Shown here: positions 1,594 through 25,414 of the stretch, one piece after another
Numbering within the stretch: the first letter of the stretch is position 1
How the letters are laid out: every line of letters starts with the position of its first letter
From: a virus
Length of the DNA: 39,049 nucleotides
Virus record (IMG/VR): IMGVR_UViG_3300005260_000003
Location: 1 to 39,049 of that record
Reading direction: 5' to 3' (one strand)
Translations under genes and position numbers: made by a program
The notes under the pieces: model-generated
What the model saw: the letters and a program-made list of their open reading frames with translations, nothing else
Database searches by the model: none
Told to the model about the DNA's origin: nothing

Positions 1594-1992
1594 ATGACAA
1601 AAAAAGATCGCGAACTCGTTGCGTTGCGCGCGTTGGTCGATGAGTTAGGCGACTTAGAACTCGAAACGCAACCGTGGCGCGCGAAACTGGCACGTGTCGA
1701 AGCGCTGCGCGCGGCGCTTCGCGCGGCCTTTGCAAACGAGGATCCGACTCAGATGTATACGACAGAGGGGGAGCGCTGGACGTGCCTCGTGGGGCTGCCG
1801 GGCTCGCAGTCCGTGATCGATCGCGAGGCGTTGTTGAAACTAATCGGTTCACGTAAGTTCGCGGCGATCGCGACGGTCTCGTTGAAGGCGCTCGAGACGG
1901 CTTACGGGGCGAGCGTGCTCGGCCAGGTGGTCTCGACCGCGCAGACCGGACCGCGCGCGCTTTCGATTGTGCCGCGGCGAATAGAAGAGTAG
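1594..1992 (+). CDS. hypothetical early protein (coiled-coil N-terminus)
   Basis: ATG-initiated 132-aa ORF and first gene right of the control region. The sequence looks protein-like (ELVALRALVDELGDLELE...). No family recognised. Confidence 0.7.
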   Translation: MTKKDRELVALRALVDELGDLELETQPWRAKLARVEALRAALRAAFANEDPTQMYTTEGERWTCLVGLPGSQSVIDREALLKLIGSRKFAAIATVSLKALETAYGASVLGQVVSTAQTGPRALSIVPRRIEE

Positions 1993-2069
1993 AACTCAAT
2001 AATTCTAGAAATATATGGTTAAATTCCCGCAGTGGTTTGCTGGCAAGTCTTGTGTTTCCATAGCCTTGC

Positions 2070-2270
2070 ATGGCGAAAAAACGCGGGCGGCCGCGGATAA
2101 AGAATAAATCTCCACTTCGCCCTAAATTGTTGTTGCTGAAACCGCAGGCAATTCGTGCCTTCGATATCCTGCGCGCGGAGCAAGGGCCGCGATCGGGTCC
2201 GCGGCTGGCGGCTGAAATGGTGGATCTGTTGTTGCGGGCATACGGGAAGAAACCGATTGGGTTTCCATGA
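2070..2270 (+). CDS. small basic protein with AT-hook-like N-terminus
   Basis: 66-aa ORF starting MAKKRGRPRIKNK. Convergent with the minus-strand gene ending at 2275. Confidence 0.55.
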   Translation: MAKKRGRPRIKNKSPLRPKLLLLKPQAIRAFDILRAEQGPRSGPRLAAEMVDLLLRAYGKKPIGFP

Positions 2271-2274
2271 GCGT

Positions 2275-2556
2275 TTAACGCAGTGGTGGCGCCAGAGTAG
2301 AGCACCACCAGTACTCATCCGTTTCACGCTTTCGGCGGCGCGCGAGGAGTGAGGAGTACAGCGCGCGCTCCCTGCAGGCTGGGCAGAAAAAATATTTGCT
2401 GTTGCGCGAAGGGATTTCCCGCGCTTTGACGTTTGGATGTTTAGGGCAGAACAACACGTTGACAAACCCGCGGCCTCGCTTGGGCCGCGCGAGCCAACTC
2501 GCGCGCATTTTCTCCGCGAGGGCTTCCGCTCTTGCATGCAGATTGCGCCGTTTCAC
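2275..2556 (-). CDS. basic Cys-pair (zinc-ribbon-like) protein
   Basis: ORF open up to 2664. A GTG at 2556 overlaps the upstream stop as GTGA, suggesting coupling. Motifs FCPKHP...FFCPACRE. The start is uncertain (2556 or 2664). Confidence 0.5.
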   Translation of the reverse strand: MKRRNLHARAEALAEKMRASWLARPKRGRGFVNVLFCPKHPNVKAREIPSRNSKYFFCPACRERALYSSLLARRRKRETDEYWWCSTLAPPLR

Positions 2557-2964: not shown

Positions 2965-3273
2965 TTACGTTGTCGGCGGGGCCGTGATCGCGAACGGGCC
3001 GGCCTTGGCAGCCTTCAGGGCTTTCACCGTCTGGTCGGTGAAGTCGCTGGCGGCCTGCGCGATCGCGCCAATCGCGGAATTGGTGCCCACGTTCGAGCCG
3101 GCGGCAGCCATCATGCCGGTTTGGATCGCGGTTGCCTTCAGAATCGTCGAGACGCCGTTCATCAGAATTTCTTTCTTGGTCGCGCCGAGTCCTCCCTGGG
3201 GGAGCGCCTGCTCGAGCGCAATGATCGAGGAAAACGCGTACTGCAAAACGGTCGTAATTAAATTCGCGGTCAT
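2965..3273 (-). CDS. small membrane-associated protein, LL-H-holin-like (tentative)
   Basis: The internal ATG at 3273 avoids overlap with the divergent NusG-like gene. Segment IIALEQALPQGGLGATKKEIL resembles the ..EQ..G..KK.. core of LL-H family holin-like proteins as I recall them. Confidence 0.55.
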   Translation of the reverse strand: MTANLITTVLQYAFSSIIALEQALPQGGLGATKKEILMNGVSTILKATAIQTGMMAAAGSNVGTNSAIGAIAQAASDFTDQTVKALKAAKAGPFAITAPPTT

Positions 3274-4023: not shown

Positions 4024-4116
4024 GTGAATGTGCCGCGGCTGCCGCTGGCGGTGTTTCTCGTGTTCCTGGTGATCTGTTGCGTGATGTTCTGGCTTTTTAA
4101 CCGGATATGGCAGTAG
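4024..4116 (+). CDS. candidate 30-aa hydrophobic peptide
   Basis: GTG-initiated VNVPRLPLAVFLVFLVICCVMFWLFNRIWQ*, a single TM-like helix that overlaps the start of the next gene by 10 nt. Speculative. Confidence 0.2.
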   Translation: MNVPRLPLAVFLVFLVICCVMFWLFNRIWQ

Positions 4117-5423
4117 CGGCGGCAAAACCGAAGCCGGCGGCGGCGACGCTCGCGATCGAGACTTGGCCGATCGATAAACCAGTGCCCTACCTCGGCAACG
4201 CGAGGCGTCTTTCGGACCGTGCGATCAGTGTGGTTGCGTCCAGCATTAAAGAATTTGGGTTTCGCCAGCCGATCGTCGTTGATAAAAAAGGCGTCGTGAT
4301 CGTGGGCCATACGCGCCTGCTCGCGGCGCAGCAGCTCGGGCTCGAAACCGTCCCGGTCCACGTGGCGCGGAATCTCACGCCGGCGCAAACCGACGCGTAT
4401 CGGTTGATGGATAACCGGGCCAGTGAGGAAACGGAATGGAATCCGGAACTACTCGGGCCGCAACTACTCAAACTCGAAAAGGCGGGCTTCGACCTCGGCT
4501 TAACCGGGTTCACGTCGGAAGAGATCAATAAGTTTCTGAAGCAAGCCTCGCTCGCGGCGGCGCAGTGCGACGAGGACGAGGTTCCCGCGCCGCCGTCCGC
4601 GCCGGTTTCGCGGGTGGGCGACGTGTGGCTTTGCGGCGAGCATCGCGTGCGCTGCGGCGATTCAACCGCGGCCGCGGATACCGCGGCGCTGTTTGGCGGC
4701 GCGCTGCCGGAGGTCGTGTTCACGGATCCGCCGTATGGGATCAACATCGTGAAGGGGAATAAAGTTGGTAGCGGTGGACCAACCACATTTGGCAAAGTTG
4801 GGACCGGTAAGATCGTCCCTGCTCACACTTACGCGGCGATCGCCGGTGATGAAAGCACCGAAATGGCGCAGCGCTTCTATGAGTGTGCTCGGTCTGTGGG
4901 TGTGAAGGCGTTTATTTTGTGGGGCGGAAACTACTTTACGCATTTCCTGCCACCTTCGCCATGTTGGATTGTTTGGGACAAACAAAACGGGGCGAATAAC
5001 TTTGCGGATGTCGAAATGGCGTGGTCGAACCTCACTAGCGGCAAGGCGCGCGAGGCGGAACTCGCCTGGTCTTCCTATCCGAAGGGCGCGCGGCTGTACT
5101 CGTACCTCTGGAACGGGCTCTCGCGCGAGGGCGACCGAAAATCAGAGCTTGTCTCGCGCGTGCATCCCACGCAGAAACCGGTCGGGCTGTTCGAGCGCAT
5201 CTTCGACGATTTCCCGTTTGGCTCCTGTTACGACGGCTTTCTCGGCTCAGGCTCTACCCTGATTGCCTGCCAGAAGGCGGGGCGCCGCTGCTTCGGTATG
5301 GAGCTCGCGCGTGAATACGTCGACGTGGCAGTGATGCGCTGGCAGAACTTTACCGGGCTCGAGGCGCGGCTCGAGGGCGGTGGCACCTATGCGGAAACGA
5401 AGGCAGACCGCATCCAGCAGTGA
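4107..5423 (+). CDS. ParB-like nuclease domain fused to a beta-class amino (N6-A/N4-C) DNA methyltransferase
   Basis: ParB N-domain motifs (IKEFGFRQPIVV...VIVGHTRLLAAQQLG). DPPYG (motif IV) precedes HPTQKP and FLGSGST...GMELAREY (motif I), i.e. beta-class order. Confidence 0.9.
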   Translation: MAVAAAKPKPAAATLAIETWPIDKPVPYLGNARRLSDRAISVVASSIKEFGFRQPIVVDKKGVVIVGHTRLLAAQQLGLETVPVHVARNLTPAQTDAYRLMDNRASEETEWNPELLGPQLLKLEKAGFDLGLTGFTSEEINKFLKQASLAAAQCDEDEVPAPPSAPVSRVGDVWLCGEHRVRCGDSTAAADTAALFGGALPEVVFTDPPYGINIVKGNKVGSGGPTTFGKVGTGKIVPAHTYAAIAGDESTEMAQRFYECARSVGVKAFILWGGNYFTHFLPPSPCWIVWDKQNGANNFADVEMAWSNLTSGKAREAELAWSSYPKGARLYSYLWNGLSREGDRKSELVSRVHPTQKPVGLFERIFDDFPFGSCYDGFLGSGSTLIACQKAGRRCFGMELAREYVDVAVMRWQNFTGLEARLEGGGTYAETKADRIQQ

Positions 5424-6850: not shown

Positions 6851-7258
6851 ATGAGCAATCTACAGGATTTGACGGCATTGCAGACGCGCCTGCAGCAGGA
6901 CGTGCAAACGCAGGCGAACGATATCCAGGTCATTCAGAACAACCTGACCGCACAACTGAAGGACTTGAACGATCAGATTTTCAAACTGCAGCAGCAGCAG
7001 CCGACGCTCGATTTGACCGCGCTCACGATGAGCGTGAATCAGCTCGAGAGTAACCATCAATCGCTGCTCGCGCTCGCCAAGCAGGCCGCCGGCGCGGAGC
7101 ATATTCCGGCGCCGGAGCCATTGATCTCGACGGCGCCGTCTTCCGATCAGCCGGCGCCGCCGGCGCCGGGCACGGTGATCGCGCCGGCCGGGCCAACTGA
7201 GCCGGTCCCGTCGCAGATGCCGGCGGAAGACACAGAGCCGCCGGTACCGCTGGTGTGA
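6851..7258 (+). CDS. coiled-coil protein with Pro-rich C-terminus
   Basis: ATG at 6851 preceded by AAGGGGGATC. Heptad-like LQDLTALQTRLQQDVQTQANDIQVIQNNL. Confidence 0.6.
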   Translation: MSNLQDLTALQTRLQQDVQTQANDIQVIQNNLTAQLKDLNDQIFKLQQQQPTLDLTALTMSVNQLESNHQSLLALAKQAAGAEHIPAPEPLISTAPSSDQPAPPAPGTVIAPAGPTEPVPSQMPAEDTEPPVPLV

Positions 7259-7259
7259 C

Positions 7260-7436
7260 ATGCCGGCCACGGACACCAAGCTCGAGCGCGATCTCGACGG
7301 CTACGTGCACACGCCGTCGGGGTTCTTGCCGCGCGCGCAGTACGAAATGATCCGGCGGCAGAATCCGGGTGCCGGGCTGCCGCCGTGGGAAGCGATTCCG
7401 GTCATTGGAGACGATGAGCGCAAGCGCGACCAGTAA
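7260..7436 (+). CDS. small hypothetical protein (58 aa)
   Basis: ATG at 7260, TAA at 7434. Hand-counted third-position GC is very high (about 50 of 58 codons), as in bona fide genes here. Too short for the ORF track. Confidence 0.5.
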   Translation: MPATDTKLERDLDGYVHTPSGFLPRAQYEMIRRQNPGAGLPPWEAIPVIGDDERKRDQ

Positions 7437-8130
7437 CGCGTTACCGGCTACGCTGCCGCCACTGTCGGCGTTGCTCGCGGAGCAGCGGCGGCGGCGGCTG
7501 AACCGCATCGACGCCATGTTTCCGGATAGCGGGCCGTTCGCACGGCACCTCTATCCAAAGCACATGGAGGTGATTCGCGCGACCGCGGTCGCGAACCAGG
7601 TCGCGTTCATCGCCGCGAACAAAATCGGGAAATCGGAGCTCGGCTGCTACTGCCTTTCAACTTGGCTCACCGGGCGCTATCCGCACTGGTGGGATGGGCG
7701 GCGCTTCAAGGGCGCGACTACGATTTGGGCGACGGGCGAGAAGAACTCGGTCGTGCGCGACTCGCTGCAACTGAAGCTGCTCGGGCCGCTGTCGGATATC
7801 GGAACGGGTTTGATTCCCGCGGACACGCTCGAGCGCGTGACGCGGAAATCGGGGCTCGCCGACGCGATCGATACCGTGACAGTGCGCCACGTGGACGGCG
7901 GGCTGAGCAACCTACGCTTCAAATCGTACGAGGAGGGTCGCCGCGCGTTTCAAGCGACCGACCTCGACGTGATCCTCTTCGACGAGGAACCGCCGGCGGA
8001 CATTTACTCGGAAGGGTTCCTCCGCACGATGGTCAAGCAGGGCTTGGCCATTTGCACGTTTACCCCGCTCTCTGGGTGGTCGGAAATTGTCGAGCAGTTT
8101 CTTGGCGCGGTCGATGGAAACAGCAACTAG
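7414..8130 (+). CDS. terL: terminase large subunit, N-terminal ATPase part (frame interrupted)
   Basis: Walker A-like AANKIGKSE, Walker B-like DVILFDEEP, coupling motif CTFTPLSG. The ORF ends at TAG 8128-8130 where homologs continue. Confidence 0.85.
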   Translation: MSASATSNALPATLPPLSALLAEQRRRRLNRIDAMFPDSGPFARHLYPKHMEVIRATAVANQVAFIAANKIGKSELGCYCLSTWLTGRYPHWWDGRRFKGATTIWATGEKNSVVRDSLQLKLLGPLSDIGTGLIPADTLERVTRKSGLADAIDTVTVRHVDGGLSNLRFKSYEEGRRAFQATDLDVILFDEEPPADIYSEGFLRTMVKQGLAICTFTPLSGWSEIVEQFLGAVDGNSN

Positions 8131-8859: not shown

Positions 8860-10950
8860 GTGCCTCCTCCCACCGACACGACCAACGATCTCGACGCGCT
8901 CGCGTTGATGCGCCGCCGCTTCCGTGCGGCCGAAGAAGCGGAAACGATTAACCGCGTCGCCGCGCTCGAGGCGATCTCGTTCTACTTCGGCGAGCAGTGG
9001 GCGAACGAAATCGAACGCGCTCGCCTTCAAGATGGCAGGCCCTGTTTTACGCTCAACAAACTCCCCGCGATCGTGCGGCAGGTGCTCAACGAGGAGCGCG
9101 CGAATCCGCCCGCGATCGAAATCGAGCCGGCGGGCGAAGGCGCGGAAGACGAGGACGCGGAAGCCGTGCAGGGCCTGGCGCGTCACGTCGAGACGCATTC
9201 GGACGCGAAGCTCGCCTACGAGAACGCGTTTCAATACCTCGTGATCGGCGGCTTCGGTTCGTGGCGCGTCGACCATAACTACCTGCCGCGCTCGATGGAT
9301 CAAGAATGCTTCATCGAGCCGATCTGGAATCCGTTCTCGGTCTATTGGGATCCGGCTTCGCAGAAACCCGACAAGTCCGACGCGCGTTTCTGTTTCGTCA
9401 CGATCGACCTATCGGTCGAGGAGCATAACGATCAGTATCCGGATTCAGAGCTGGCGGGCCGCGCGGACTTCGATGGCCTCGGCGATCTCGCGCCCGGGTG
9501 GGTGCATCGCGACGGCGCGCGCGTTGTCGAATATTTTTATATAGAAACCGAAGACGCGACGCTGGTCCAGTTGACGGACGGGCGCTGCGTTTATGACGAC
9601 GACATTCCGAAGGGCGCGAAGATTGCGAAGCGCGACGGAAAGCCGGTCACGCGAAAGGATACGCGCCGGCGCTGCTATGTCGCGCACTCGAACGGGCTCG
9701 AGTGGCTCAAGAAAGCCGAAGAACTTCCCACAGAAGACATACCAATTGTCACCGTGTACGGCGAACGCCTGCAGGTCGGCAGCGAGGTCCGCTACAAGGG
9801 CATGGTAGGGGACCTCGAAGAAGCGCAGCGGATGTTTAACTACAACTCGTCCGCGATTACGGAAACGATGGCGCTCGGCGCCAAATCGAACTGGCTCGCA
9901 ACGGTCGAACAGATCGAGCAGTTCATGGATATCTGGCGGCAGTCAAACTCGCGCAACCTCGCCGTATTGCCGTACAAGAACATGCCTGGGGTTGCGCCGC
10001 CGCAGAAGATCGCGACCGAACCGCCGATCCAGGCGATGAGTCTCGCGCGGCAACAGTCCGCGGACGATCTCCGCGCGATCTCGGGCGTCTACGATCCGAC
10101 GCAGTCGCCGCGCGGCGGCGAGGAGTCGGGCCGCGCCATCATCACGCGCCGCCGGCAGGCCTCGGTCAGTAACAACCATTGGACGGTCAACCTGGCGCGC
10201 GGCGTGAAGCGAACCGCCGACATTTTAATCAAGTATTTCCCCGTTATCTACGACAACGCGCGCGTACTGCGCATCACTGGCAAGGATCAGCAGACCAAAC
10301 GAATCATGGTCCACGCGGGGCGGCCGGACACGCTGCCGCCGGTGCCACCGCCGGATCTCAAAGGCGTGTTCGATCTCTCGGTCGGCCGCTACGCGATCAC
10401 GGTCGGCGTGGGGCCATCGTACGAGACGATGCGCGAAGAAACGCTCGATATGCTGCTCGCGCTGGTCGCGGCGGATCCGACGATGGCGCCGCTCGTGCGC
10501 GACCTCGTTGTGAACGAGATGGCCTTCCCGAACAAGCAGGCCTTCGTCGCTCGCCTGCAGCGCGCGCTGCCGCCGAACCTGCAGGATCCGAAGGAAGCGA
10601 CGGATCCGAACCAACTGCAGGCGCAGAACGGCATGCTGATGCAGCAGAACCAATCGCTCATGCAGCGCCTCGCGCAACTGCAGCAGATGATCCAGACACA
10701 CGCGGTTCAGAACGCCTCGCGCGAACGCGTGGAACAAATGAAGCTCGAAGCCGCCAAGATCCTCGCCGAGTCGCGCCTCGAACAAGAGCAGGTGAAGCAG
10801 CGCGCGCACATCTTAACGAAGGCCGCAGACGCGCAGACGCAGATCGTGCACGATCACGCGATGGCCGATAAGGACGCGGTCCACGAAATGATGCACCGCG
10901 AACACGCCGCGCGGATCGCGCCGCCGGCGCCGCTGCGGCTCACGCAATAG
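8860..10950 (+). CDS. portal protein (P22-like, with C-terminal coiled-coil barrel)
   Basis: 696 aa, immediately after terL. FYFGEQWANEIERARLQDGRPCFTLNKLPAIVRQV motif. Gln/Leu-rich helical tail LQAQNGMLMQQNQSLMQRLAQLQQMIQ. Confidence 0.9.
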   Translation: MPPPTDTTNDLDALALMRRRFRAAEEAETINRVAALEAISFYFGEQWANEIERARLQDGRPCFTLNKLPAIVRQVLNEERANPPAIEIEPAGEGAEDEDAEAVQGLARHVETHSDAKLAYENAFQYLVIGGFGSWRVDHNYLPRSMDQECFIEPIWNPFSVYWDPASQKPDKSDARFCFVTIDLSVEEHNDQYPDSELAGRADFDGLGDLAPGWVHRDGARVVEYFYIETEDATLVQLTDGRCVYDDDIPKGAKIAKRDGKPVTRKDTRRRCYVAHSNGLEWLKKAEELPTEDIPIVTVYGERLQVGSEVRYKGMVGDLEEAQRMFNYNSSAITETMALGAKSNWLATVEQIEQFMDIWRQSNSRNLAVLPYKNMPGVAPPQKIATEPPIQAMSLARQQSADDLRAISGVYDPTQSPRGGEESGRAIITRRRQASVSNNHWTVNLARGVKRTADILIKYFPVIYDNARVLRITGKDQQTKRIMVHAGRPDTLPPVPPPDLKGVFDLSVGRYAITVGVGPSYETMREETLDMLLALVAADPTMAPLVRDLVVNEMAFPNKQAFVARLQRALPPNLQDPKEATDPNQLQAQNGMLMQQNQSLMQRLAQLQQMIQTHAVQNASRERVEQMKLEAAKILAESRLEQEQVKQRAHILTKAADAQTQIVHDHAMADKDAVHEMMHREHAARIAPPAPLRLTQ

Positions 10951-11560: not shown

Positions 11561-12493
11561 ATGGCTGAAACCATAGAATCTCCCGAGATTTCCCTCGCCG
11601 ACTATCGCGCGCTCCGAGAGGGCCGCGACCTGCCGCCGAAGGTGAATACGTCCGAAGCTCCCGCGGCCGCGGCGGAACCGCCGCCGGCTGCGAGTGACGC
11701 TGAAACCGCTGCGGAGCCGGAGTCCGCAGAAACAACCGAAGGCTCGCAAGAGCAAGAGCAACCACCCGAAAAACCGAAGCCTGCGCCTCCGAAGCGCGGG
11801 ATGATAGACGAGATCGCCGCGCTGCGGGCAAAGAACCGCGAGCTCGAGGCGAGGCTCAACGGATCGAAGCCGGCGCAACCGCCGGCCGAAGTACCGCCGC
11901 CTGCCGCCGCCGAGAACGCACCCGCAGATGATCCCGAACCCGATGTCGACAAGTACACGGATTACGTTCTGTTCCAAAAGGACTGGAACCGCTGGGATCG
12001 GCGGCAGGAGTTAAGACGCGAGGCAGCAGAGAAGGCCAAGGCGGATGCCGCGGCCGCGGAACGTGCGAGGGCCAATGTTTGGTCTGAACGCGTGGCGGTC
12101 GCGAAGCGCGCGCACGAGGATTTCGAAACGGTCGCGTTGAACGTCGATCTGCCAGTTACGCCTGTCATGGGGCAGGCGATTACTGATACCGAGATCGGCG
12201 CGGAAATCCTGTATTATCTCGGCTCGCATCCGGAAGAGTCCGCGCGCATCGCGAAACTCACTCCGCTGGCGCAAATTCGGGAAATCGGAAAGCTCGAGCT
12301 CACGCTCTCGGCGAAGGAAGAACCTGCCGCCGCGGAGCCGGAGCAGCCTGTCACACCTACACCAGTCAGTAAGGCGCCGGCACCCGTCGCGCGTCCGCAG
12401 GCCGGAGCTACACGATCGGATCCTCGCCGCAATGTCGAGGGGATGTCGCTCGCGGAGTACCGCGCCTATCGCGAGTCGGGCAAGATCCGCTGA
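11561..12493 (+). CDS. scaffolding protein
   Basis: Acidic, Ala/Pro/Glu-rich, helical 310-aa protein located between the portal and coat genes. Confidence 0.7.
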   Translation: MAETIESPEISLADYRALREGRDLPPKVNTSEAPAAAAEPPPAASDAETAAEPESAETTEGSQEQEQPPEKPKPAPPKRGMIDEIAALRAKNRELEARLNGSKPAQPPAEVPPPAAAENAPADDPEPDVDKYTDYVLFQKDWNRWDRRQELRREAAEKAKADAAAAERARANVWSERVAVAKRAHEDFETVALNVDLPVTPVMGQAITDTEIGAEILYYLGSHPEESARIAKLTPLAQIREIGKLELTLSAKEEPAAAEPEQPVTPTPVSKAPAPVARPQAGATRSDPRRNVEGMSLAEYRAYRESGKIR

Positions 12494-12537: not shown

Positions 12538-13694
12538 TTGGCGAACACAATCCTTACTCCGACCATGATCGCGAAAGAAGCGCTCATGCTGTTGGAGAAC
12601 TCACTTACTTTTACCAAGTACGTCAACCGCCGCTATGCGGGCGAGTTCGCGCAAACCGGCGCGAAAATCGGCGCAACCGTTAACATCCGCGTTCCTCCTC
12701 AGTTTTCTGTCACGAGCGGACCGAACCTGAGCATTCAGAACTTCACCGAAACGGTCGTGCCTTTGACGATCAACCAGCAGAAACACGTCGATGTTTCCTT
12801 CTCCTCGGTGGAACTCACGCTCTCGATTCAAGATTTCTCCGATCGCGTGCTCAAGCCGCAAATCGCACAGCTCGCGAACCAGATCGATCAGGACGGGCTC
12901 GCGCAGTACGTGAACGTCTATAACTCGGTCGGCGTACCGGGCACGCCAAACACGACGCTTGCGCCGTTCCTGCAAGCGGGCGTGATCCTCGACAACAACG
13001 CCACGCCGCGCGATAACAACCTCCGCAATATCGTGCTGAGTCCGCAGGGGCAGGCCGATGCGGTCTCGGGCTTTAACGCCTACTTCAACGATCAGGACAC
13101 GATCGGCAAACAATACCTGAACGGCACGATGGGCCGCGCGCTCGGCTTCAAGTGGTCGATGGACCAAAACGTGAATACGTTGACGGTTGGTCCACTCGGC
13201 GGCTCACCCGCGGTGAACGGCGCGAGCCAAACCGGCTCGACGCTCGTGACGAATGGCTGGACGGCATCGGCGGCCTCGCGGCTGCTCGGCGGCGAGACAT
13301 TCACGCTTCCCAACGTGTACGCGTTGAATCCGTTGTCTAAGTTCAACGTCGGCAAGCTGCAAATCTTTACCGTGCTTGGGCCGGTCTCTTCCGATGGTTC
13401 AGGTAACGCGACGCTGACGATTTCGCCCGCGATCGTCACCAGCGGGCCATCGCAGAACGTGTCGAACTCGCCGGCGAACGCGGCCGCGCTGACGTGGACC
13501 TCGGGGCCTGCGAATACGCAGGTGCCTGTGGGATTAGCCTTTCACAGGGATGCCTTTACCTTCGCGAGTGTTGACCTGGAAGATGTAAGTCGCTATGGGG
13601 CATGGGGCGCTCGTGTGAGTGACGATCAACTCGGCATCTCCATGCGCATCGCGCGCCAGTATGCGATCGGTAGCGACACCGTGCCTTGTCGGAT
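12538..13694 (+). CDS. major capsid (coat) protein, P22 gp5 family, exon 1
   Basis: TTG at 12538 lies 8 nt after AGGAG (the track's alternative start is GTG 12514). ANTILTPTMIAKEALMLLENSLTFTKYVNRRY is typical of P22-type coat proteins. The uninterrupted frame stops at 13701 right after ..PCRIN. Confidence 0.88.
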
Positions 13695-13948
13695 TAACTA
13701 ACATTGGTCCCTTCGCGTAGCAATACGCGTCGAAGAACCAGGTGAATTCAGAGAACCTCCGAATGTTCAAGACTCGGACAACTTTGAGCCAAGCCCCGGA
13801 AACGGGGAAGGTGCGACGGTCATCCCGCGAGGGAGTAGGAAACAGCGTTTCCGAAGCGCCTGGAACCCACATGGTGGGTTATGACATGACCTGCACTCGC
13901 CGGCAACGGCGAGAGACTGAGCGGATGCGGCTCAGTCGCAACACTCTG
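13695..13948 (+). ncRNA. candidate group I self-splicing intron (ORF-less, 254 nt, with P7.1/P7.2-like hairpins)
   Basis: U13694.G13707 wobble in P1 (13691-97/13704-10). Terminal G13948. P10 pairs CGA 13949-51 with TTG 13704-06. Hairpins carry GCAA, GAAA, GCGA and GCAA tetraloops. Long-range P3, P4 and P7 pairings can be drawn by hand. Confidence 0.7.
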
Positions 13949-14018
13949 CGATGTTCTTTACGGCTGGGCAACAATCCGTGCTGCTATGGCATGCCGGATT
14001 TACGGAAGTAACACGTAA
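13949..14018 (+). CDS. major capsid protein, exon 2 (last 22 residues plus stop)
   Basis: After splicing, reads ..CR-I-DVLYGWATIRAAMACRIYGSNT*. This matches the CRI-xxx-YG-xxxx-R spacing of the P22 coat C-terminus (CRIALWYGVNATRPEA, from memory). 1157+70 nt = 409 codons. Confidence 0.7.
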
Positions 14019-14833
14019 TACGGATTATTCCGCTTTTGCATGTTGTGCGTTGGGCATAGAATCTGCAAGTTATCCGGCCAATTGGTTCCTGCGATTCCAC
14101 TCTCAGGCTTCAAAGGAATGATGTGATCGACATGGTATTTGTCTTTGCTGCCGGTCACGTCCGAAATCGGATGGCAGCAGTTCGGCACTGCGCATCGCTT
14201 ACCTTGTTTCAACCACAAAGCGCGTATATCGGCGGCGGTATGAAATCCTTCTGCCGCCGCCTTGTATGCGCGTTTATTACGACCTTGTGCATTTGCACAC
14301 TCGGGGTTAGCGCGCCTCCATTCGACGGTGCGCGCGCATGCCTCGTCGCGTCGCGCAGCTCGGTATACCGCGCCGCTCTTTCGTTTGCAGTTAGGATTAG
14401 CGGCGTGCCACTTTTGGTTGTTCGCATAAAACCGCGCGTAGTTTCTGGAGCGCCACTTTTTTGCGCTTTCCTTCACCTTGTCGGGATTCTCGGCGCGATA
14501 CTTCGCGCCGCGCTCAATCTCCGCCTCGCGATTCGCGAGGTAGCGGAGTCGCGCTTTCTCTCGAATCTCCTCGTGATGCTCCGCCTGGTATTTCGCCCAA
14601 GCGAGGCGTTCCTGTTCGATGTGTGTAGCGCGGTATCTCGCTTTTGCCATCCTCGCTTTCTCTGGATTCGCGTCGCGCCACTTTTTATCCATCGCGCGTG
14701 CAGCGACTGGATCCGCGGCACGTTTATTCCGCAGGCGTTGAGCGAGACACGGTTTGCAGTTTGCTTTTCCGATAGTAAACGCGCTCGCGTCCTTGGTCTC
14801 GCCGCACGTCCGGCACGTTTTCACGGCACTCAT
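14000..14833 (-). CDS. free-standing HNH homing-type endonuclease
   Basis: 277 aa. N-terminal CRTCGETK..C..C, repeated (W/Y)Rxx NP(E/D)K units, and C-terminal HNH core KYHVDHIIPL...NLQILCPTHNMQK. Visibly lower GC. Its 3' end overlaps coat exon 2 by 19 nt on the opposite strand. Confidence 0.9.
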   Translation of the reverse strand: MSAVKTCRTCGETKDASAFTIGKANCKPCLAQRLRNKRAADPVAARAMDKKWRDANPEKARMAKARYRATHIEQERLAWAKYQAEHHEEIREKARLRYLANREAEIERGAKYRAENPDKVKESAKKWRSRNYARFYANNQKWHAANPNCKRKSGAVYRAARRDEACARTVEWRRANPECANAQGRNKRAYKAAAEGFHTAADIRALWLKQGKRCAVPNCCHPISDVTGSKDKYHVDHIIPLKPESGIAGTNWPDNLQILCPTHNMQKRNNPYYVLLP

Positions 14834-14913
14834 CTCTATTCACTTATCGGCTGAAACCGCACGTTTCGCCAGTCATAGACGTTCTAAGTACGAACCACAA
14901 AGGAGCTTTTGAA

Positions 14914-15222
14914 ATGGCATACGAACCACGCGAATATCCCAAAATGAAGTACCACGCCAAACACGGCGCGCGTACCGTGAACAACGCGGAGGAGGAGCAA
15001 GCGCTCGGGTCCGGATGGGTGAAGCATCCAGACGAACTCGACGAGCAGAAACAACAGGAGCGCGAACAGTCGGAGCGTGACGAGGAGCTCGCGCGCCTCG
15101 CGACTACGAACGACGCGCTGCCATCGGCGACGGCAACGAACGCGCCGGAGTTCAACGTCCCGAAGGCGAACGAGCCGGCGACGGTCAGTCAGACGATCAG
15201 CCAACGGGCGGCGAAGAAGTAA
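14914..15222 (+). CDS. small hypothetical protein (YPKMKYH motif)
   Basis: ATG preceded by AAAGGAG. EYPKMKYH....V.N.EEEQALGSGW resembles a recurrent small phage protein family as I recall it. Confidence 0.7.
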   Translation: MAYEPREYPKMKYHAKHGARTVNNAEEEQALGSGWVKHPDELDEQKQQEREQSERDEELARLATTNDALPSATATNAPEFNVPKANEPATVSQTISQRAAKK

Positions 15223-15969: not shown

Positions 15970-17405
15970 AGTTCGAGGAATTTCTCGGCGCGACCTATGC
16001 GCTGCCGCAGTTCCAGGTCGATTGCCAGCGTAGCCTCAACCTGATCCCGCAGGTGGTCGCGGCCGATGGTGGCTCGCGCGCGACGCGGTTGATCTTGGTG
16101 CGTGCGCCGGGCCTCGCGTTGCGGCAGACGCTGCCGGATTCGCCGGGACGCGGCGCGTTCGCGCTGAATGGGCGCGCCTTCGCGGTCGCGGGTAGCTCAT
16201 TCTATGAGCTACTGTCGCCCACTACTTATATTCAGCGCGGCACGATTGCGGCGGGCACTTCCGCGGTCAAATTCGACGCGAACGGCGTGCAGGTCGGTTT
16301 CGTAGCGGATGGGCGCGGCTACATGTTCACACTCGCGACGAATGCGTTCGCGCAGGTGACAGACGTAAACTTTCCGAATCCCGCAGTCGGCTTAACCTCG
16401 ATCGATACGTACTTTCTCACGCTCGCCGGCGGAACGAATCAATTCTTTTACTCAGCGCTGCTCGACGGGCTCACGTGGTCGGGGATCGATTTCTCGGCGA
16501 CCGACGCGCCGGATCACGGCGTCACCCTCACGCAAAACAATAACTACCTCTGGGTATTTGGCCAGCAGCGGATCATCGTGTTTCAAGATACCGGCGCGAC
16601 GTCGAAGCCGTTCCAGCGCGTTCCCGGTGTCCAGATTGAAATGGGCTGCGCCGCTGCAGCCAGTGTCGCTTCCGTCGACAATACGCTCTTTTGGCTCGGC
16701 TCGTCCTCCCTCGGCGCGGGTGCTGTATACCGCGCCGATGGGTTTCTGCCGACGCGTATCTCGACGCACGCACTTGAAAGCGCGATCGCCAACTATGCGA
16801 CGATCTCGGATGCCACTGCCTACGGTTACAGTGAGGCGGGGCACACGTTTTACCGCCTCGATTTCCCGACCGCAAACGCAACCTGGGTCTATGACAGTGC
16901 GACGCGGCTCTGGCACGAGCGCGCCTATTGGGATCTGTCGACGGGATCGTTTCAGGCGGACTTAGCGCGCTACCACTGTTACTGTTTCGGCGCGCATCTG
17001 GTCGTCGATTATCAATCCGGCAACGTGTACGAGCAGTCGCTCGACTTTGCGGATCACGCCGGCAACCCGCTGCGCTGGCTGCGCGCGGCGCCGCGGCTCA
17101 ACGATGGGCAGAAGCGGCTCTTTTATTACTCGATTGAAATCGACATGCAGCGCGGCTCGGCGGTCGATGGTGGCGGGCAGGGCTCGGATCCGGTTGTGTT
17201 CATCCGCTGGTCGGACGATGGCGGCGGGACCTGGTCGGACTACCGGCAGGCCTCGACGGGCGCACTCGGCGCGTACGCGACGCGCGTGAAGGTACGCCGC
17301 TGCGGCTCGGGGCGGAATCGCGTGTGGGAAGTCTCAGGCTCGGATCCCGTTCCGCAACTCGCGCTGATCGGCGCGGAGCTGCATGTGATGGAGGGATCGA
17401 GCTAA
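15966..17405 (+). CDS. phage stabilisation/tail hub protein (P22 gp10-like)
   Basis: 479 aa (P22 gp10 is about 470 aa), coupled by ATGA. N-terminal YALPQFQVDCQRSLNLIPQ...VRAPGL...RGAFALNGRAFAVAG pattern, typical of this family from memory. Confidence 0.8.
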   Translation: MKFEEFLGATYALPQFQVDCQRSLNLIPQVVAADGGSRATRLILVRAPGLALRQTLPDSPGRGAFALNGRAFAVAGSSFYELLSPTTYIQRGTIAAGTSAVKFDANGVQVGFVADGRGYMFTLATNAFAQVTDVNFPNPAVGLTSIDTYFLTLAGGTNQFFYSALLDGLTWSGIDFSATDAPDHGVTLTQNNNYLWVFGQQRIIVFQDTGATSKPFQRVPGVQIEMGCAAAASVASVDNTLFWLGSSSLGAGAVYRADGFLPTRISTHALESAIANYATISDATAYGYSEAGHTFYRLDFPTANATWVYDSATRLWHERAYWDLSTGSFQADLARYHCYCFGAHLVVDYQSGNVYEQSLDFADHAGNPLRWLRAAPRLNDGQKRLFYYSIEIDMQRGSAVDGGGQGSDPVVFIRWSDDGGGTWSDYRQASTGALGAYATRVKVRRCGSGRNRVWEVSGSDPVPQLALIGAELHVMEGSS

Positions 17406-18758: not shown

Positions 18759-19061
18759 ATGTTTGATCTCCTTCACTCGACTTATCAGATGGCCGCGCCG
18801 GGCACGGCGGCGGACGATATCGACCGCATCATCGAAGGCGCACTCGCGCGGGCTCGCGAAAAACATGCGGATTGGGAACACTTCGCGCTCGGAATCGAGT
18901 TCCTTTCCTCGGTGTTCTTTACTGACCATCACAAAATGCCGCTCGACGATTACCTCGAAAGTCTTTACTGCGCGGTGAAGCATGGTGATTTTTCGAAGCC
19001 GTGGCGCGCGGAACTGCGCCGCATGCGCGCCGAAACGGAGCAGCCGGCGGCCGTGCAGTGA
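18759..19061 (+). CDS. hypothetical protein
   Basis: 100-aa ATG ORF whose stop overlaps the next start (GTGA). Confidence 0.6.
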   Translation: MFDLLHSTYQMAAPGTAADDIDRIIEGALARAREKHADWEHFALGIEFLSSVFFTDHHKMPLDDYLESLYCAVKHGDFSKPWRAELRRMRAETEQPAAVQ

Positions 19062-20915: not shown

Positions 20916-22616
20916 ATGGCTTCTGATCCTAGTGTTTACGGCATCTTTAATCGGCCGACGGTCGAGCTGCTCGATCCCTATACGGTGCAGGCGCGGCAGC
21001 TTGCGATTCGCAACGCGCTCGCCGCCGGGCAGATGCAGGATCAGCAGATCGCGACGGGTGCGCTTGAGCTCGAGGCGCGCCGGCGCGCGATGGCAGACGA
21101 GCAGGCGACTCGCGCGGCTCTCACGAGTTTCTACGGATCCGGATCCGCGCCGCCCGCGGGTCCGGGAGGTGCGGCGGCGGATCTATCGGTTCCCTCCGCC
21201 GCTGCGCCGGCACCTTCTGCGCCTACGGCTCCGGCTGCGGCGCCGGCTGCGGCTCCGGTACCGCGGCCGCGGGTGCCGACGATGGGCGAATTGATTCAGC
21301 ACGGCGTTCCGCCGCCGGCTGCTGCGGGACTCATTGAGTCATTTCAAAAGATCGACGCCAACACGGCCGCCATCGAGGAGAAGAAGGCCGCGGCGGCAAA
21401 GGCACAAAGCGAACTGAACACAGCGGTACAAGAGCACGCCGGCGAGATGGCCAGCGCGATTATCAAAAGCAATTACAATCCGGCGGTCAGGGATTGGCAA
21501 CTCGCGCACTTTGCAGGCCTCGGCGCTCCTTACGCGCAAATGGCGCAACAGGTCAAGGCGCAGATCGAGGCGAATCCTGACAGTGCGCCGGGCATTTTCC
21601 AGTCGATCGCAAACTCGGCGAAGGGGGCTCGCGAGGCCGCGGCGCGCGAGGGCGAAGTCACAAATCAGCAGCAACGGCTCACAGCGGAACTGCCGGGCTT
21701 GCAGGCCGAAAGTGTCACCAAGCAATTGACGGCACAAGGCAAGGCACCGATTCAGCCGGCGGAGCAGCAGCGGATCGCGCTCGAGCGGCAACGCGTCGCG
21801 GACGAAAACGCGCGCCTCCGTCTCGAGGCCGCGCGTTTCCAGCAGCAGTACGGCGATCCGACCGCCGGCGCCACGCCGGGCGAGTTGTACAAGGCGAAGT
21901 TGATCGCCAACGGCGACATACCGGCGCCGTCTTCGCGTTCGAAGGGCTACGATCGCACGCTGGCGCTCGTCATGAATACGGATCCGACTTACACGGAGGC
22001 GCGCTATCTCGGGAAGAAGCAATTTAAGACGGGTCCCGACGCGAATAACATCGTCAGCATCACAACGGCTCTCGCGCATCTGGATAACGCGCAGGCGAAC
22101 TCGGCGAAACTCGGCTTCGAGCCGACGCTCGGCGCGAACTGGGCGCCGGATCAGCGCCGCTATCACGCGGACGTCGACCTATTACAGGGCGAAGTCGGCA
22201 AACTGATTAAAAACGGTGTCGTCGCGGAAGGTGAGGCGAACCGCCTGATTTCGAATCTTACCTCCGTGCAGCAGCGCAACCGCGACGCGGCGCTCGACGA
22301 GTTAAAGAACCTGATGGGCGGCAAACTCGAGGGCATCGCGCAGAAGTATCGCAACGCGACAAACCAGGATCTACCGCTCTCGATGTTCGACAAAGCGACG
22401 CAGGCGCGCCTGGCGAAGCAGGGTCTACTCGGCGCCGGCGGCATTCCAGGGGAAGCCGCGCCGCAACCAACAGCGGCGCCAACTCCGGCGGCTCAACCTG
22501 CCGCCGCGAACAGGCCGGCGGGCTCGGTCTCGGTGACGGATCCGAACGGTGGCGTGCATGTCTTCCCGAACCAGGCCGCCGCCGACAACTTTAAGCGGCT
22601 CGCAGGCATTCGCTAA
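20916..22616 (+). CDS. internal virion/ejection protein (putative), coiled-coil rich
   Basis: 566 aa with long helical segments. Call based on position in the ejection-protein block. Confidence 0.75.
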   Translation: MASDPSVYGIFNRPTVELLDPYTVQARQLAIRNALAAGQMQDQQIATGALELEARRRAMADEQATRAALTSFYGSGSAPPAGPGGAAADLSVPSAAAPAPSAPTAPAAAPAAAPVPRPRVPTMGELIQHGVPPPAAAGLIESFQKIDANTAAIEEKKAAAAKAQSELNTAVQEHAGEMASAIIKSNYNPAVRDWQLAHFAGLGAPYAQMAQQVKAQIEANPDSAPGIFQSIANSAKGAREAAAREGEVTNQQQRLTAELPGLQAESVTKQLTAQGKAPIQPAEQQRIALERQRVADENARLRLEAARFQQQYGDPTAGATPGELYKAKLIANGDIPAPSSRSKGYDRTLALVMNTDPTYTEARYLGKKQFKTGPDANNIVSITTALAHLDNAQANSAKLGFEPTLGANWAPDQRRYHADVDLLQGEVGKLIKNGVVAEGEANRLISNLTSVQQRNRDAALDELKNLMGGKLEGIAQKYRNATNQDLPLSMFDKATQARLAKQGLLGAGGIPGEAAPQPTAAPTPAAQPAAANRPAGSVSVTDPNGGVHVFPNQAAADNFKRLAGIR

Positions 22617-25414
22617 TGGCAAGTACCGCGATCGACTACGAAGCTCTCGCGAAACAGGCCGGCGCGATCTCGTCTTCGCCGGCAATGGTGGATTATGCCG
22701 CGTTGGCGAAACGGGCCGGCGCGATCTCGTCCTCTTCGGCGGGTGTACCGGACGCCGGCGCGCAGATGCGCTCGTCTGCGTTGCGTGGCGTCACAGAGCA
22801 CATGCAACTCGACAATCCGTATAACTTCACGGAGACGTCGGGCGGCGGTTTTCTGGAGTCCGCCAAAGAAGCGTTTATGGGTCCGCTTCGGGGCCTGGTC
22901 CATTTGCCGACTGCCGCCGAAATCAGTCCTACCGGCGGCGCGGAGGCCATGAAGGATATTCCGGCGCAGACCGTGCAACGGGTGAGCGATCAAGCGCTCG
23001 CGGGCAACCTTCCCGGCGCAGCGGGTACAGCTTTGGGCACAGGCGCGGGCCTGGCTGCTCCTCTCGTGGCGGGTGAGGCGTTACGGCTGGCAGGTCCTGC
23101 GGTGTCGCGCGCAACGACAACCGCACGAACAAGCGGTGCCGACTTACTGCGCGCGAGTGCCGAGAAAAACATCGATACCGCCATCAACCCGACCACCCGC
23201 GTCAATAAAGCGCTGGTACGCGACAAAATCGCGCCGGGGCTGGTCGATCGCCGCATCACGGCAAGCTCGCTGAAGGATTTACAGGATCAGGCGCAAGCGC
23301 AAATGGAAGTACACGGCGCGAAGATCGACGACATTTTCGATCAGCACGCCGAAGCCGGGACTAAACTCTCGCCGAAGCCGATTCTGGAAGCGCTCGAAAA
23401 AGAAAAACAGAATTACATCGTCGATGGAGAGCCCGTTAATCCTGCGTATGTGAACCGGCTGCAGGGTTTTCAGGACCAACTGCAGCGCATCAGCGACGCC
23501 AACGGAGGAAAGATTCCCTTGGCCTCCTTGCGCCGTGTGCGGCAGGCTAACGACGAAATCGTGGCCCAGTCGAAGGGCGGCTTTGCGCTGCCGCCGGACG
23601 CGCAAAGCGCGGTGAATGCCGCCAAAACTTACAGCAATGCAATTCGCTCCACGTTTGCCGAGAACGTGGATGGTCTCGCCGACGCTAATCGCGAATTTAA
23701 TTTTTGGTCAGACACGGATAAGGTAGTCGATGCGTCGCTGCTCCGTAAGACCGGGCAGCGCGCACCATTGACGCAGAAGTTCGGGGCTATGATCGGCGGC
23801 GGCATCGGTGCCGCAGTCGGCCACGCCATCGGCGGCGAAGTAGGCACTGGTGCAGGTGTGGCGGCGGGCTCGGCGCTGGGCTCAAAACTTGGTGCGCTTA
23901 GTAACTCAACCATCTGGAACACGCTTTCCGCGAACCTAAAGGCGCGTGTGGCGTCGCGCCTGGCTGCGGGCGATGAAGCCGGCGCGATCGCATTGCTCCC
24001 TCCGCCGGCGCGGGCTATTGTCAGAGACGCCGCCACGGTGGCAGAATCGAAGGGAGTCCCACTCAATGCAGGATCCACGGCAGCAGGAGAAAGCGCAGCG
24101 CTTCCTGAAGCGGTTCGAGGAAGCGAGGCGGTTGTCGCTCGAACGCCTGGCGACACAGGATCCGCAAGCACAACAGTCTCAGTCCCTGGGCAAGCTGGCC
24201 GCGGCTATCAAGCCGAGTACAAAGTCAGAGAATTAGCGGATCTCAACGCTTCACATAACGGGCAGACGTTCGCGCCGAATGCGGAATACAAGCTGACAAA
24301 CGATCGCGACTACGGGAACGCGTCGAATCAGGGCAAGGTCGTGCAATGGTCTTCGCGCACGGAATTTGATCCGCGCTATCACATTACCGATAATCCCGAC
24401 GCGACCAACGGGCCGCTGGTAATCGATCCTGCCGGGAACGTGCTCGGCGGCAACGGTCGGAAGATGATCCTCGATCGCGTGTACGCCTCGAACCCGAAGG
24501 GCGCGCAGGCTTACCGCAATCTACTGAAGGCGAAGGCCGGGCAGTTCGGCGTCGATCCGGCGGCGGTCGACGCCATGAAGCAGCCTGTTCTGGTGCGTGA
24601 AATACCGGAGGCCGAATTTCGCAAACAGGGCGCCTCAAAACAGTTCGGTGTCACGGATTTCAATAAAAGCGGCACGGCTTCACTCACGCCGGGTGAGCGC
24701 GCGATCGCCGACTCGCGCCGGGTCTCGCCGGCAACGCTCGATGATGTGGCGGGCCGCCTCGATCAAAAGGGCGCGAACGCCACGCTGGCGGATATCCTGC
24801 AGGGTAAGCCGGGCGGGGAAGTGCTCAATAAGCTCATCGGCGACGGTGTCCTCACGCCACAGGAGCGCGCCGCGTTCATGACGAGCGAGGGCGAACTCAC
24901 GCCGGCGGGCAAGGATCGCGTTCAAAAGCTCATCCTGGGGCGGTTCTTCGAGGATCCGGCGCAGCTCGACTCGATCGCGCCATCTGTGCGCAACAACGTC
25001 GAACGCATCGCGGCGCCGCTCGCGCAGGTCGAAGCGAAGGGCGGCGAGTGGAATCTGACTCCGGATGTGCAATCGGCGCTCGGCATTCTTGAGCGCGCGC
25101 AGAAGCTCAAGATCCGCAACGTCGACGATTACCTGCGGCAGGAGGGCCTGTTCGGCGCGCAGAACTATGCGCCGCGTGCGATCGCGCTCGCGAAGGCGCT
25201 GCAGTCGATGGGCGCGGAAGAGATCAAGGCGGCCGCGCGCCAGTACGCCGGCGATGCCGCTCACGCGGCCGGCGGTGAGTCGTTGTTCGGCAATGCTCCC
25301 ACGCCTGCCAGTTCATTCGCGGACGCCTTCGAGCGCGCCGCGGCGCCAGTGCCGGCGGCGAAAAACGCGCTCAGTAAGCCGGCGAAGCCGAAAAACTCCC
25401 TGACTCGGAAATAA
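22616..25414 (+). CDS. large internal virion/ejection protein with a ParB/Srx-like central domain
   Basis: 932 aa with a TAATG junction. N-terminal 19-aa tandem repeat (22631-22744). Central SHNGQ...PLVIDPAGNVLGGNGRKMILDRVY resembles the GNGR-motif ParB-like domains of polyvalent ejected proteins (from memory). Confidence 0.8.
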   Translation: MASTAIDYEALAKQAGAISSSPAMVDYAALAKRAGAISSSSAGVPDAGAQMRSSALRGVTEHMQLDNPYNFTETSGGGFLESAKEAFMGPLRGLVHLPTAAEISPTGGAEAMKDIPAQTVQRVSDQALAGNLPGAAGTALGTGAGLAAPLVAGEALRLAGPAVSRATTTARTSGADLLRASAEKNIDTAINPTTRVNKALVRDKIAPGLVDRRITASSLKDLQDQAQAQMEVHGAKIDDIFDQHAEAGTKLSPKPILEALEKEKQNYIVDGEPVNPAYVNRLQGFQDQLQRISDANGGKIPLASLRRVRQANDEIVAQSKGGFALPPDAQSAVNAAKTYSNAIRSTFAENVDGLADANREFNFWSDTDKVVDASLLRKTGQRAPLTQKFGAMIGGGIGAAVGHAIGGEVGTGAGVAAGSALGSKLGALSNSTIWNTLSANLKARVASRLAAGDEAGAIALLPPPARAIVRDAATVAESKGVPLNAGSTAAGESAALPEAVRGSEAVVARTPGDTGSASTTVSVPGQAGRGYQAEYKVRELADLNASHNGQTFAPNAEYKLTNDRDYGNASNQGKVVQWSSRTEFDPRYHITDNPDATNGPLVIDPAGNVLGGNGRKMILDRVYASNPKGAQAYRNLLKAKAGQFGVDPAAVDAMKQPVLVREIPEAEFRKQGASKQFGVTDFNKSGTASLTPGERAIADSRRVSPATLDDVAGRLDQKGANATLADILQGKPGGEVLNKLIGDGVLTPQERAAFMTSEGELTPAGKDRVQKLILGRFFEDPAQLDSIAPSVRNNVERIAAPLAQVEAKGGEWNLTPDVQSALGILERAQKLKIRNVDDYLRQEGLFGAQNYAPRAIALAKALQSMGAEEIKAAARQYAGDAAHAAGGESLFGNAPTPASSFADAFERAAAPVPAAKNALSKPAKPKNSLTRK

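Follow-up and report, generated by a model that had tools for sequence, protein, structure and literature searches.

A compact group I intron predicted to interrupt the P22-type coat gene of an environmental phage

The IMG/VR virus record IMGVR_UViG_3300005260_000003 is a metagenome contig of 39,049 bp with a G+C content of 61%; it was analysed over its whole length (hereafter the window) and represents a phage of about 39 kb with a portal, scaffold and coat of the P22 type. The portal gene lies at 8860-10950 (PF16510, 492 bits), and is followed by the scaffold gene at 11561-12493 (phrog_8865) and by the coat, or major capsid, gene, which starts at a TTG codon at 12538 with an AGGAG sequence 8 nucleotides (nt) upstream; its homologues begin MANTILTP. 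The coat open reading frame (ORF) ends prematurely at a TAA (13699-13701) directly after ..DTVPCRIN, for a product of 387 amino acids (aa), and the missing end of the gene is found in a different frame, beyond an insert of exactly 254 nt that bears the marks of a small group I intron. The features of the interrupted gene are as follows.

12538-13694, plus strand: coat exon 1 (385 codons plus the first 2 bases of an Ile codon), identified by PF11651 (P22_CoatProtein) and by the starts of homologues
13691-13710, plus strand: P1 hairpin, read from the sequence, with the Rfam alignment in the same register
13695-13948, plus strand: group I intron without a homing-endonuclease ORF, identified by RF00028 and by covariation, with no Pfam match in its ORFs
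13699-13701, plus strand: in-frame UAA in the P1 loop, 5 nt into the intron; a second carrier of the intron (L001, below) has the same AAC UAA
13702-13706, plus strand: 5' part of the guide, the candidate partner of exon 2 in P10
13948, plus strand: terminal G (omega-G) at the 3' splice site, from the one junction that fits both ..CRID.. and a final G
13694 to 13949, plus strand: predicted ligated junction, ..CCUUGUCGGAU joined to CGAUGUUCUUUACGG
13949-14018, plus strand: coat exon 2, comprising the third base (C) of the Ile codon, then DVLYGWATIRAAMACRIYGSNT and a stop, in agreement with about 45 homologues in which this C-terminus is contiguous

When 13694 is joined to 13949, the message reads ..CGG AUC GAU.. 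across the junction and encodes a 408-aa protein that ends ..PCRIDVLYGWATIRAAMACRIYGSNT. This spliced product spans PF11651 completely (positions 1-423 of 423) at 126.6 bits against a cut-off of 24, while the unspliced ORF reaches only positions 1-403 at 106.6 bits, and the final 20 model positions are conserved throughout the family. A survey of the 120 best database matches to the coat protein provided about 45 intronless homologues (73-79% identical) in which the coat is one contiguous gene with the C-terminus ..VPCRIDVLYGW..RPQMACRI.GSNT. Three related loci (L007, L009 and L010) have an uninterrupted coat gene of 408 aa within the order portal, scaffold, coat, small ORF, a gene of about 245 aa and a Phage_stabilise gene, and in L009 the DNA over the predicted junction, CCTTGCCGGAT|CGACGTTCTTTACGG, corresponds to the ligated exons. 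Judged from the protein, a junction at 13695|13950 would be equally possible; only with 13694|13949 does the intron end in G. The conserved C-terminus is thereby restored exactly.

An earlier note, made by a reader who had only the letters of this DNA, had proposed a compact ORF-less group I intron that splits the P22-type coat gene 22 codons from its end, and the RF00028 match described below, the Pfam coverage and the homologues all bear this out. Its coordinates for the stop at 13701 and for exon 2 at 13949-14018 proved correct throughout, the C-terminus of the PF11651 model is indeed covered only by the spliced product, and the covariance model scores above the Rfam cut-off. That note had also considered that close homologues might end naturally at ..CRIN or that the downstream segment might not be part of the coat. 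In fact, the close homologues continue ..CRIDVLYGW..R..A.R..GSNT, and exon 2 is contiguous with the rest of the gene in intronless homologues, with the L009 DNA matching on both sides of the junction.

The boundaries also conform to group I rules, as had been claimed, in that exon 1 ends in a U (U13694) paired with G13707, the intron ends in G13948 and a single guide contacts both exons. In P1, the exon bases GGAU together with the first intron bases UAA (13691-13697) pair with the guide UUGGUCC (13704-13710), and the U13694.G13707 wobble marks the 5' splice site. The proposed pairing of the guide with both exons thus stands for P1, and for P10 in all but its length: CGAUG of exon 2 (13949-13953) can pair with CAUUG (13702-13706) over 5 bp, and not the 3 bp originally listed. 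The intron of L001 follows the same rules, with a U.G wobble in P1, a final G and a possible P10.

As a group I intron, the element is recognised by RF00028 (Intron_gpI), which matches 13685-13913 over the full model (1-253) with 52.2 bits (cut-off 50) and E = 1.4e-10; this is the one Rfam match in the window, where no other family appears even at E <= 0.1. Because this score lies near the threshold, relatives of the intron were sought by BLAST of phage records and by searching IMG/VR and JGI metagenome contigs with a core motif (GAGCCAAGCCCNGGAA..GGGAAGGTGC), which must be matched exactly and carries no capsid information. The resulting fold alignment holds nine introns from seven loci: the window, L001, the Ralstonia phage BOESR1, L003, L004 (three introns), L005 and L006. 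Together with the single-sequence fold, it yields the following helices.

13711-13735, plus strand: P2, with a GCAA tetraloop, found by RNAalifold and in the minimum free energy (MFE) fold, and with a compensatory G-C to A-U change relative to L001
13738-13744, plus strand: P3 5' strand, pairing with 13857-13863 (7 pairs, 100% paired, 4 compensatory)
13748-13787, plus strand: P4 (13748-53/13782-87) enclosing P5 (13758-62/13774-78)
13788-13812, plus strand: P6 (13788-90/13810-12) and P6a (13794-98/13803-07, GAAA loop)
13816-13822, plus strand: P7 5' strand, made of A13816, a bulged C13817 and G13818-A13822, with its partner at 13887-13892
13823-13852, plus strand: P7.1 (13823-34, GCGA loop) and P7.2 (13838-52)
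13857-13863, plus strand: P3 3' strand, placed by the pair counts
13864-13880, plus strand: P8, 5 pairs, all compensatory
13887-13892, plus strand: P7 3' strand, placed by the pair counts
13896-13913, plus strand: P9, with a GCAA loop (7 pairs, 6 compensatory)
13915-13937, plus strand: P9.1, 8 bp with the loop GGAUGCG, from the MFE fold and, by inspection, with compensatory changes in BOESR1 and L006

Applied unguided to the nine introns, RNAalifold recovered P2, P3, P4, P5, P6, P7.1, P7.2, P8 and P9, and P7, added as a pseudoknot, is 100% paired in all nine sequences (6 pairs, 4 of them compensatory). Over the 57 core pairs, P7 included, 98.2% of the cells hold standard pairs and 42 pairs show compensatory changes; when the partners were slid by 1-3 columns as a control, pairing was 33-43%, and no column shuffle in 500 reached any of the observed pair measures. 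P7.1 and P7.2 are likewise 100% paired, with compensatory changes in 8 of 9 pairs, and the P6 region holds an invariant GCCAAGCC. The G13818-C13891 pair of P7, which we take to be the guanosine-binding site, is invariant in 9 of 9 introns and sits beside the bulged C13817 and the A13816-U13892 pair. On its own, the window intron folds at its MFE into the same helices plus P9.1 at -98.9 kcal/mol (z = -3.68), a stability reached by 0 of 200 shuffles. Apart from the pseudoknotted P7, the hand-drawn fold of the earlier note agrees in helices P2-P9 with both RNAalifold and the MFE fold, its P4 register excepted: covariation supports 13748-53 with 13782-87, and G13788 sits in the base of P6.

By helix layout the intron is IA-like, as P7.1 and P7.2 are inserted between P7 and the 3' strand of P3. 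Introns of subgroup IC3 have a compact core without an insertion at this point, and because P7.1 and P7.2 are present, the layout is IA and not IC3. The resemblance to the Azoarcus tRNA-Ile intron core that had first been suggested therefore does not hold, an Azoarcus-like (IC3) class being ruled out by P7.1 and P7.2; the relatives are phage introns. No homing endonuclease is encoded inside the intron. It is overlapped by four mechanically called ORFs of at least 20 aa. Those of 89 and 112 aa, the longest, extend into the exons and have no Pfam match at E <= 1, and those of 28 and 31 aa are too short to specify an endonuclease.

A second allele of the interrupted gene came to light among the coat homologues, one of which (P0047) likewise stops at ..PCRIN. 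Its contig, L001 (Logan SRR30224762), comes from a different data source and has an intron of 253 nt at the identical site, which scores 50.0 bits on RF00028 and is followed by DVLYGWATPRPQMACRIYGSNT; the L001 coat product is 74% identical to that of the window. Between the two loci, the intron is 89.5% identical, exon 1 69.7% and exon 2 73.6%. The introns differ in 27 columns, only 4 of which are at paired positions, and these 4 amount to two full compensatory changes: a G-C pair replaced by A-U in P2, and an A-U pair by G-C in P7.2. In exon 2, 11 codons have synonymous changes only and 3 change the amino acid (counted by hand), so that 19 of 22 residues are kept. Considering this pattern of substitution, both the ribozyme fold and exon 2 are under purifying selection, which counts against a dead remnant. 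The intron was found in 0 of the 80 closest IMG/VR coat loci, and its rarity, together with an identity above that of its exons, would fit horizontal spread, with structural constraint contributing as well. A search of 185,579 species genomes, bacterial and archaeal, with the intron core pattern returned no match, and thus neither a prophage copy nor a clue to the host.

The preferred explanation, held at a probability of about 90%, is that these 254 nt are a functional, ORF-less group I intron of IA layout that splits a late-expressed coat gene. The steps set out here are modelled on the standard group I pathway, and we infer from it both the splicing chemistry and its efficiency in vivo. The guide at 13704-13710 would pair with the last four exon bases to form P1 with its wobble at the splice site, and a free guanosine held at G13818-C13891 of P7 would attack after U13694. 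The 5' part of the guide would then align the first bases of exon 2 as P10, G13948 would take the place of the free guanosine in the site, and the exons would be ligated into the message for the 408-aa coat. In unspliced RNA, the UAA in the P1 loop would stop ribosomes ahead of the ribozyme core. Phage group I introns are known to carry early in-frame stops of this kind, which are believed to allow folding (PMC3984707). Unspliced RNA would give a product that ends at ..CRIN, without 21 conserved C-terminal residues; therefore, full-length coat would depend on splicing, and virion assembly presumably does so too. A sequence search of solved structures with the spliced coat gave weak matches in the I-domain region only ('Putative coat protein' entries 6mnt and 8skg), which are silent on the role of the C-terminal 22 residues.

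Several points weigh against a working intron. Splicing is a prediction from sequence and fold, the RF00028 score of the window is only 2 bits over the cut-off with that of L001 exactly on it, and P1 has just four exon base pairs. The in-frame stop, moreover, is near the guide, and a terminating ribosome would cover it; efficient splicing in vivo therefore cannot simply be assumed. That the intron is more alike between the two loci than the exons are may in part be due to structural constraint, and not to recent transfer.

Some of these points can also be read as signs of a decayed, non-splicing remnant, in which case the coat would be either a pseudogene or a working 387-aa protein with exon 2 as a relic. 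The near-threshold Rfam score and the predicted nature of splicing are what favour such decay. It is nevertheless very improbable, since all core helices are intact, the G-C pair of P7 is invariant, the L001 differences are outside paired positions or compensatory, and the frame of exon 2 and 19 of its 22 residues have been kept despite 26% nucleotide divergence, in a segment that covers the conserved final 20 positions of the Pfam model. An assembly artefact or chimeric contig that placed foreign sequence in the coat gene is harder still to credit. The window is a metagenome contig, of course, and the related locus L004 has the look of a chimeric or duplicated assembly, but two independent assemblies from different data sources have diverged sequence at the same insertion nucleotide, and the boundaries restore the frame to the base. 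Slightly less improbable than decay, and still improbable, is a regulatory role, whereby incomplete or conditional splicing would supply both 387-aa and 408-aa coat proteins or would time capsid production. The stop 5 nt into the intron would define such a truncated product, and coupling of translation and splicing is known in phage introns (PMC3984707); however, the great majority of relatives are intronless and do without it, early in-frame stops are common in phage group I introns and explained by the needs of folding, and nothing in the sequence points to a sensor. Ribosomal frameshifting or translational bypass was also considered and is ruled out by a gap of 254 nt that folds as a ribozyme.

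With a functional intron as the favoured explanation, its relatives and their host genes merit attention. BLAST of phage records revealed a 70%-identical element between the two halves of the DNA polymerase gene of Ralstonia phage BOESR1, and the core-motif search added four more loci with six introns that score 69-98 bits on RF00028; overall, the relatives score 50-98 bits. The host genes belong to the P22_CoatProtein family in the window and L001, to SU10_MCP in L003 (intron at 2167-2464, minus strand; IMG/VR 3300031841_002158), to Phage_capsid_2 in L004 (three introns) and to a Gp10A-like (T7 gp10A-like) family in L005 (intron at 219-430; a TARA contig). Thus, 5 of the 7 intron loci are in capsid genes of four Pfam families, the others being the DNA polymerase gene of BOESR1 and an unidentified gene in L006. 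This share is a lead and not a result, considering the small sample and the exact core motif that was required. It is conceivable, if rather doubtful, that the window intron is one of a clade of tiny introns of IA type, all ORF-less, with a preference for major capsid genes. If so, the lineage would move repeatedly to new, non-homologous capsid sites, possibly by reverse splicing through the 4-6-nt guide sequence or with the aid of trans-acting nucleases, and capsid genes would be a favoured intron niche in environmental podoviruses, one that is largely masked by gene callers that give truncated or split capsid ORFs.

Some of these loci have features of their own. L006 (Ga0070763_10041543; intron at 1848-2119, minus strand) carries the closest relative after L001, with 74.8% identity, and its 5' exon ends ..CGGAU as in the window. 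The intron lies about 100 nt before the end of its gene, and the joined exons read ..RERFAD|YGQVGYLAFSRYDASPLYGPG.. (..RERFAD|YGQVGYLAF..); they have no Pfam match, they weakly match a PHROG of unknown function, and there is no tRNA at the intron site. By eye, the neighbouring ORFs are Mn-catalase-like and TIR-like or nucleoside deoxyribosyltransferase-like. In L004 (PVBE011348152.1, a metagenome contig of 39,016 bp), the introns at 1577-1799, 1979-2189 and 2350-2562, which score 69-98 bits, all lie within about 1 kb of one Phage_capsid_2 gene (region 1400-2660). An exon segment, FDQVGKAVAVKKTSRHSDTPISDTPHSRRMVTMEHYEYADL-IDDADKVRMLIDPTSS, occurs there twice: intron a interrupts the first copy and intron b terminates it, and intron c interrupts the second copy at a different site. 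The locus is either a true tandem duplication, with insertions at three sites, or a chimera assembled from strain variants. Another P22-type coat gene, that of Podoviridae sp. ctn9Y15 (MW202674.1; L011), is annotated as two 'P22 coat protein' coding sequences and a hypothetical protein. Its insert of about 262 nt (1761-2022 of the locus, about 16829-17090 of the record) follows ..CATGTGGAT and ends ..GGATG before ACACAATTC; the boundaries fit the U/G rule, and removal would restore ..HVD|TQFTTQDLALS... A search of a 421-nt stretch that includes this insert gave no Rfam match even at E <= 1. It is perhaps a divergent intron that occupies another site in the coat gene.

A further mobile element adjoins the coat gene of the window and overlaps the end of exon 2.

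14000-14833, minus strand: free-standing HNH endonuclease gene, 277 aa (PF01844, phrog_1035)

The match to PF01844 is 21.3 bits against a cut-off of 21.4, and that to phrog_1035 ('endonuclease VII') has E = 2.4e-18. The gene and the coat gene converge; a distance of 52 nt separates it from the 3' splice site, and its last 19 nt coincide with the end of exon 2, so that its last six codons and stop (14000-14018) are read from the complement of the final 19 nt of the coat gene. Its closest homologues (57-60% identical) occupy the same slot, also convergent, beside intronless coat genes in L012-L016. In L012-L014, a hairpin terminator stands between coat and HNH gene, a spacer that the window has lost; a scan of 13900-15000 for promoters and terminators showed nothing above shuffled expectation. 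The slot holds a 30%-identical HNH gene in L022 and N-terminal HNH remnants in L019 and L020, and these were the exceptions among 80 IMG/VR coat loci, the other 77 of which had no match to the HNH gene of the window. The position behind the coat gene is one at which this HNH family lands repeatedly, in agreement with the published clustering of homing endonuclease genes beside capsid and other essential genes (PMC10448857). One of these loci, the 38.6-kb contig L012, has a second HNH gene (7146-7949, 267 aa, PF01844 and PF14279) between scaffold and portal; phages of this type accumulate free-standing HNH genes around the block of head genes.

The proximity of intron and HNH gene raises the matter of how the intron spreads, which probably happens through recombination when related phages infect the same cell, perhaps with a nuclease assisting in trans. 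Collaborative homing would be a specific form of such help: the HNH enzyme would cut intronless coat genes at or near the insertion site and so spread both elements, with the intron shielding its carrier. The arrangement is suggestive, given that the HNH gene adjoins the intron and overlaps exon 2 and that both elements are absent from most relatives. The mechanism itself is established, in the cited accounts, for the cyanophage psbA intron with F-CphI and for T4 mobE with I-TevIII (PMC3984707, PMC2790892, PMC6083498). Nonetheless, it seems unlikely here. The HNH gene is absent from L001, L007, L009 and L010, and all four combinations exist: both elements in the window, the intron only in L001, the HNH gene only in L012-L016, and neither in L007, L009, L010 and 77 of the 80 IMG/VR loci. 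Because every combination of presence and absence occurs, the HNH gene is a mobile element separate from the intron, and this independent distribution speaks against an obligate partnership. An enzyme that cuts the intronless site would, moreover, cut the L012-L016 genomes that carry its homologues beside intronless coats. No cleavage site could be deduced from the sequences, as an alignment of coat 3' ends from genomes with and without the HNH gene gave no consistent difference.

Introns in phage capsid genes are already known, and the window provides a further example. The earlier note knew of no documented case, a view contradicted by mycobacteriophage LittleE, where splicing of a major capsid intron was demonstrated by reverse transcription PCR and N-terminal protein sequencing (Pope et al. 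2013, PMC3706429), and by the capsid-gene intron of lactococcal phage Tuc2009 that the same paper cites. Complex splicing is also reported for a giant-virus capsid gene (PMC6247863), and the genomes of some huge phages each have about 18 small group I introns, located in essential genes (PMC12363816). In LittleE as in the window, a tailed phage has its major capsid gene interrupted by a group I-type intron, exon 1 ends in U, the intron ends in G, related phages have the gene uninterrupted and free-standing HNH genes are nearby. In contrast, the LittleE intron is about 820 bp long with an opposite-strand LAGLIDADG-like ORF, whereas that of the window has 254 nt and no ORF; the window coat is of the P22 type in a high-GC environmental phage, with a different capsid family and host range; and splicing is experimental in LittleE and predicted in the window.

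Among annotated phage records, the closest relative is the BOESR1 element, with 69.6% identity across 80% of the intron length. This element, too, is compact and lacks an ORF; it forms the same helices, P7.1, P7.2 and P9.1 among them, shows numerous compensatory changes in them, and has a small HNH gene downstream. Unlike the window intron, it resides in a DNA polymerase gene, has a different P1 target and scores 91 bits on RF00028 (against 52). It belongs with the DNA-polymerase introns of T7-like phages, such as the IA2 intron of cyanophage Pf-WMP3 (PMC3428280). The psbA intron of cyanophage S-PM2 with F-CphI offers a parallel in which an ORF-less intron and a free-standing endonuclease engage in collaborative homing (PMC3984707, PMC6083498); by comparison, the intron and the HNH gene of the window occur independently of each other across relatives, and the HNH gene is of another family than F-CphI. 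The Azoarcus tRNA-Ile intron resembles that of the window in being small and ORF-less, with GNRA-capped helices and a group I core of P3-P9, but the latter has P7.1, P7.2 and P9.1, a protein-coding host gene and phage-intron relatives, and the joining sequences are alike only as far as the general group I consensus.

Three other genes of the window may be recorded: a fusion protein of ParB_N and an N6/N4 methylase at 4107-5423, a 932-aa protein with a ddrB-like ParB domain among the late genes at 22616-25414, and a 300-aa ORF for a C-5 cytosine methylase at 36810-37712, in which Pfam covers the N-terminal half only (1-164 of 324).

Introns such as this one readily escape annotation. The gene caller gave a truncated coat of 387 aa for the window (P0001) and also for the second contig (P0047). 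In BOESR1 (OR367448.1), 'DNA polymerase' and 'DNA polymerase I' are annotated as two coding sequences, and the 91-bit RF00028 intron between them (about 3005-3153 of locus L002, about 18858-19006 of the record) is unannotated; a 79-aa HNH gene follows 140 nt downstream. Spotting such introns corrects the annotation of capsids and polymerases, which serve as phylogenetic markers. How group I introns are currently understood is left unchanged. What the window adds is a P22-type coat to the few phage capsid genes for which a need for RNA splicing is known or predicted, and a well-sampled case in which an ORF-less intron and its free-standing HNH neighbours segregate independently, which makes this system useful material for testing how introns without an ORF of their own spread.

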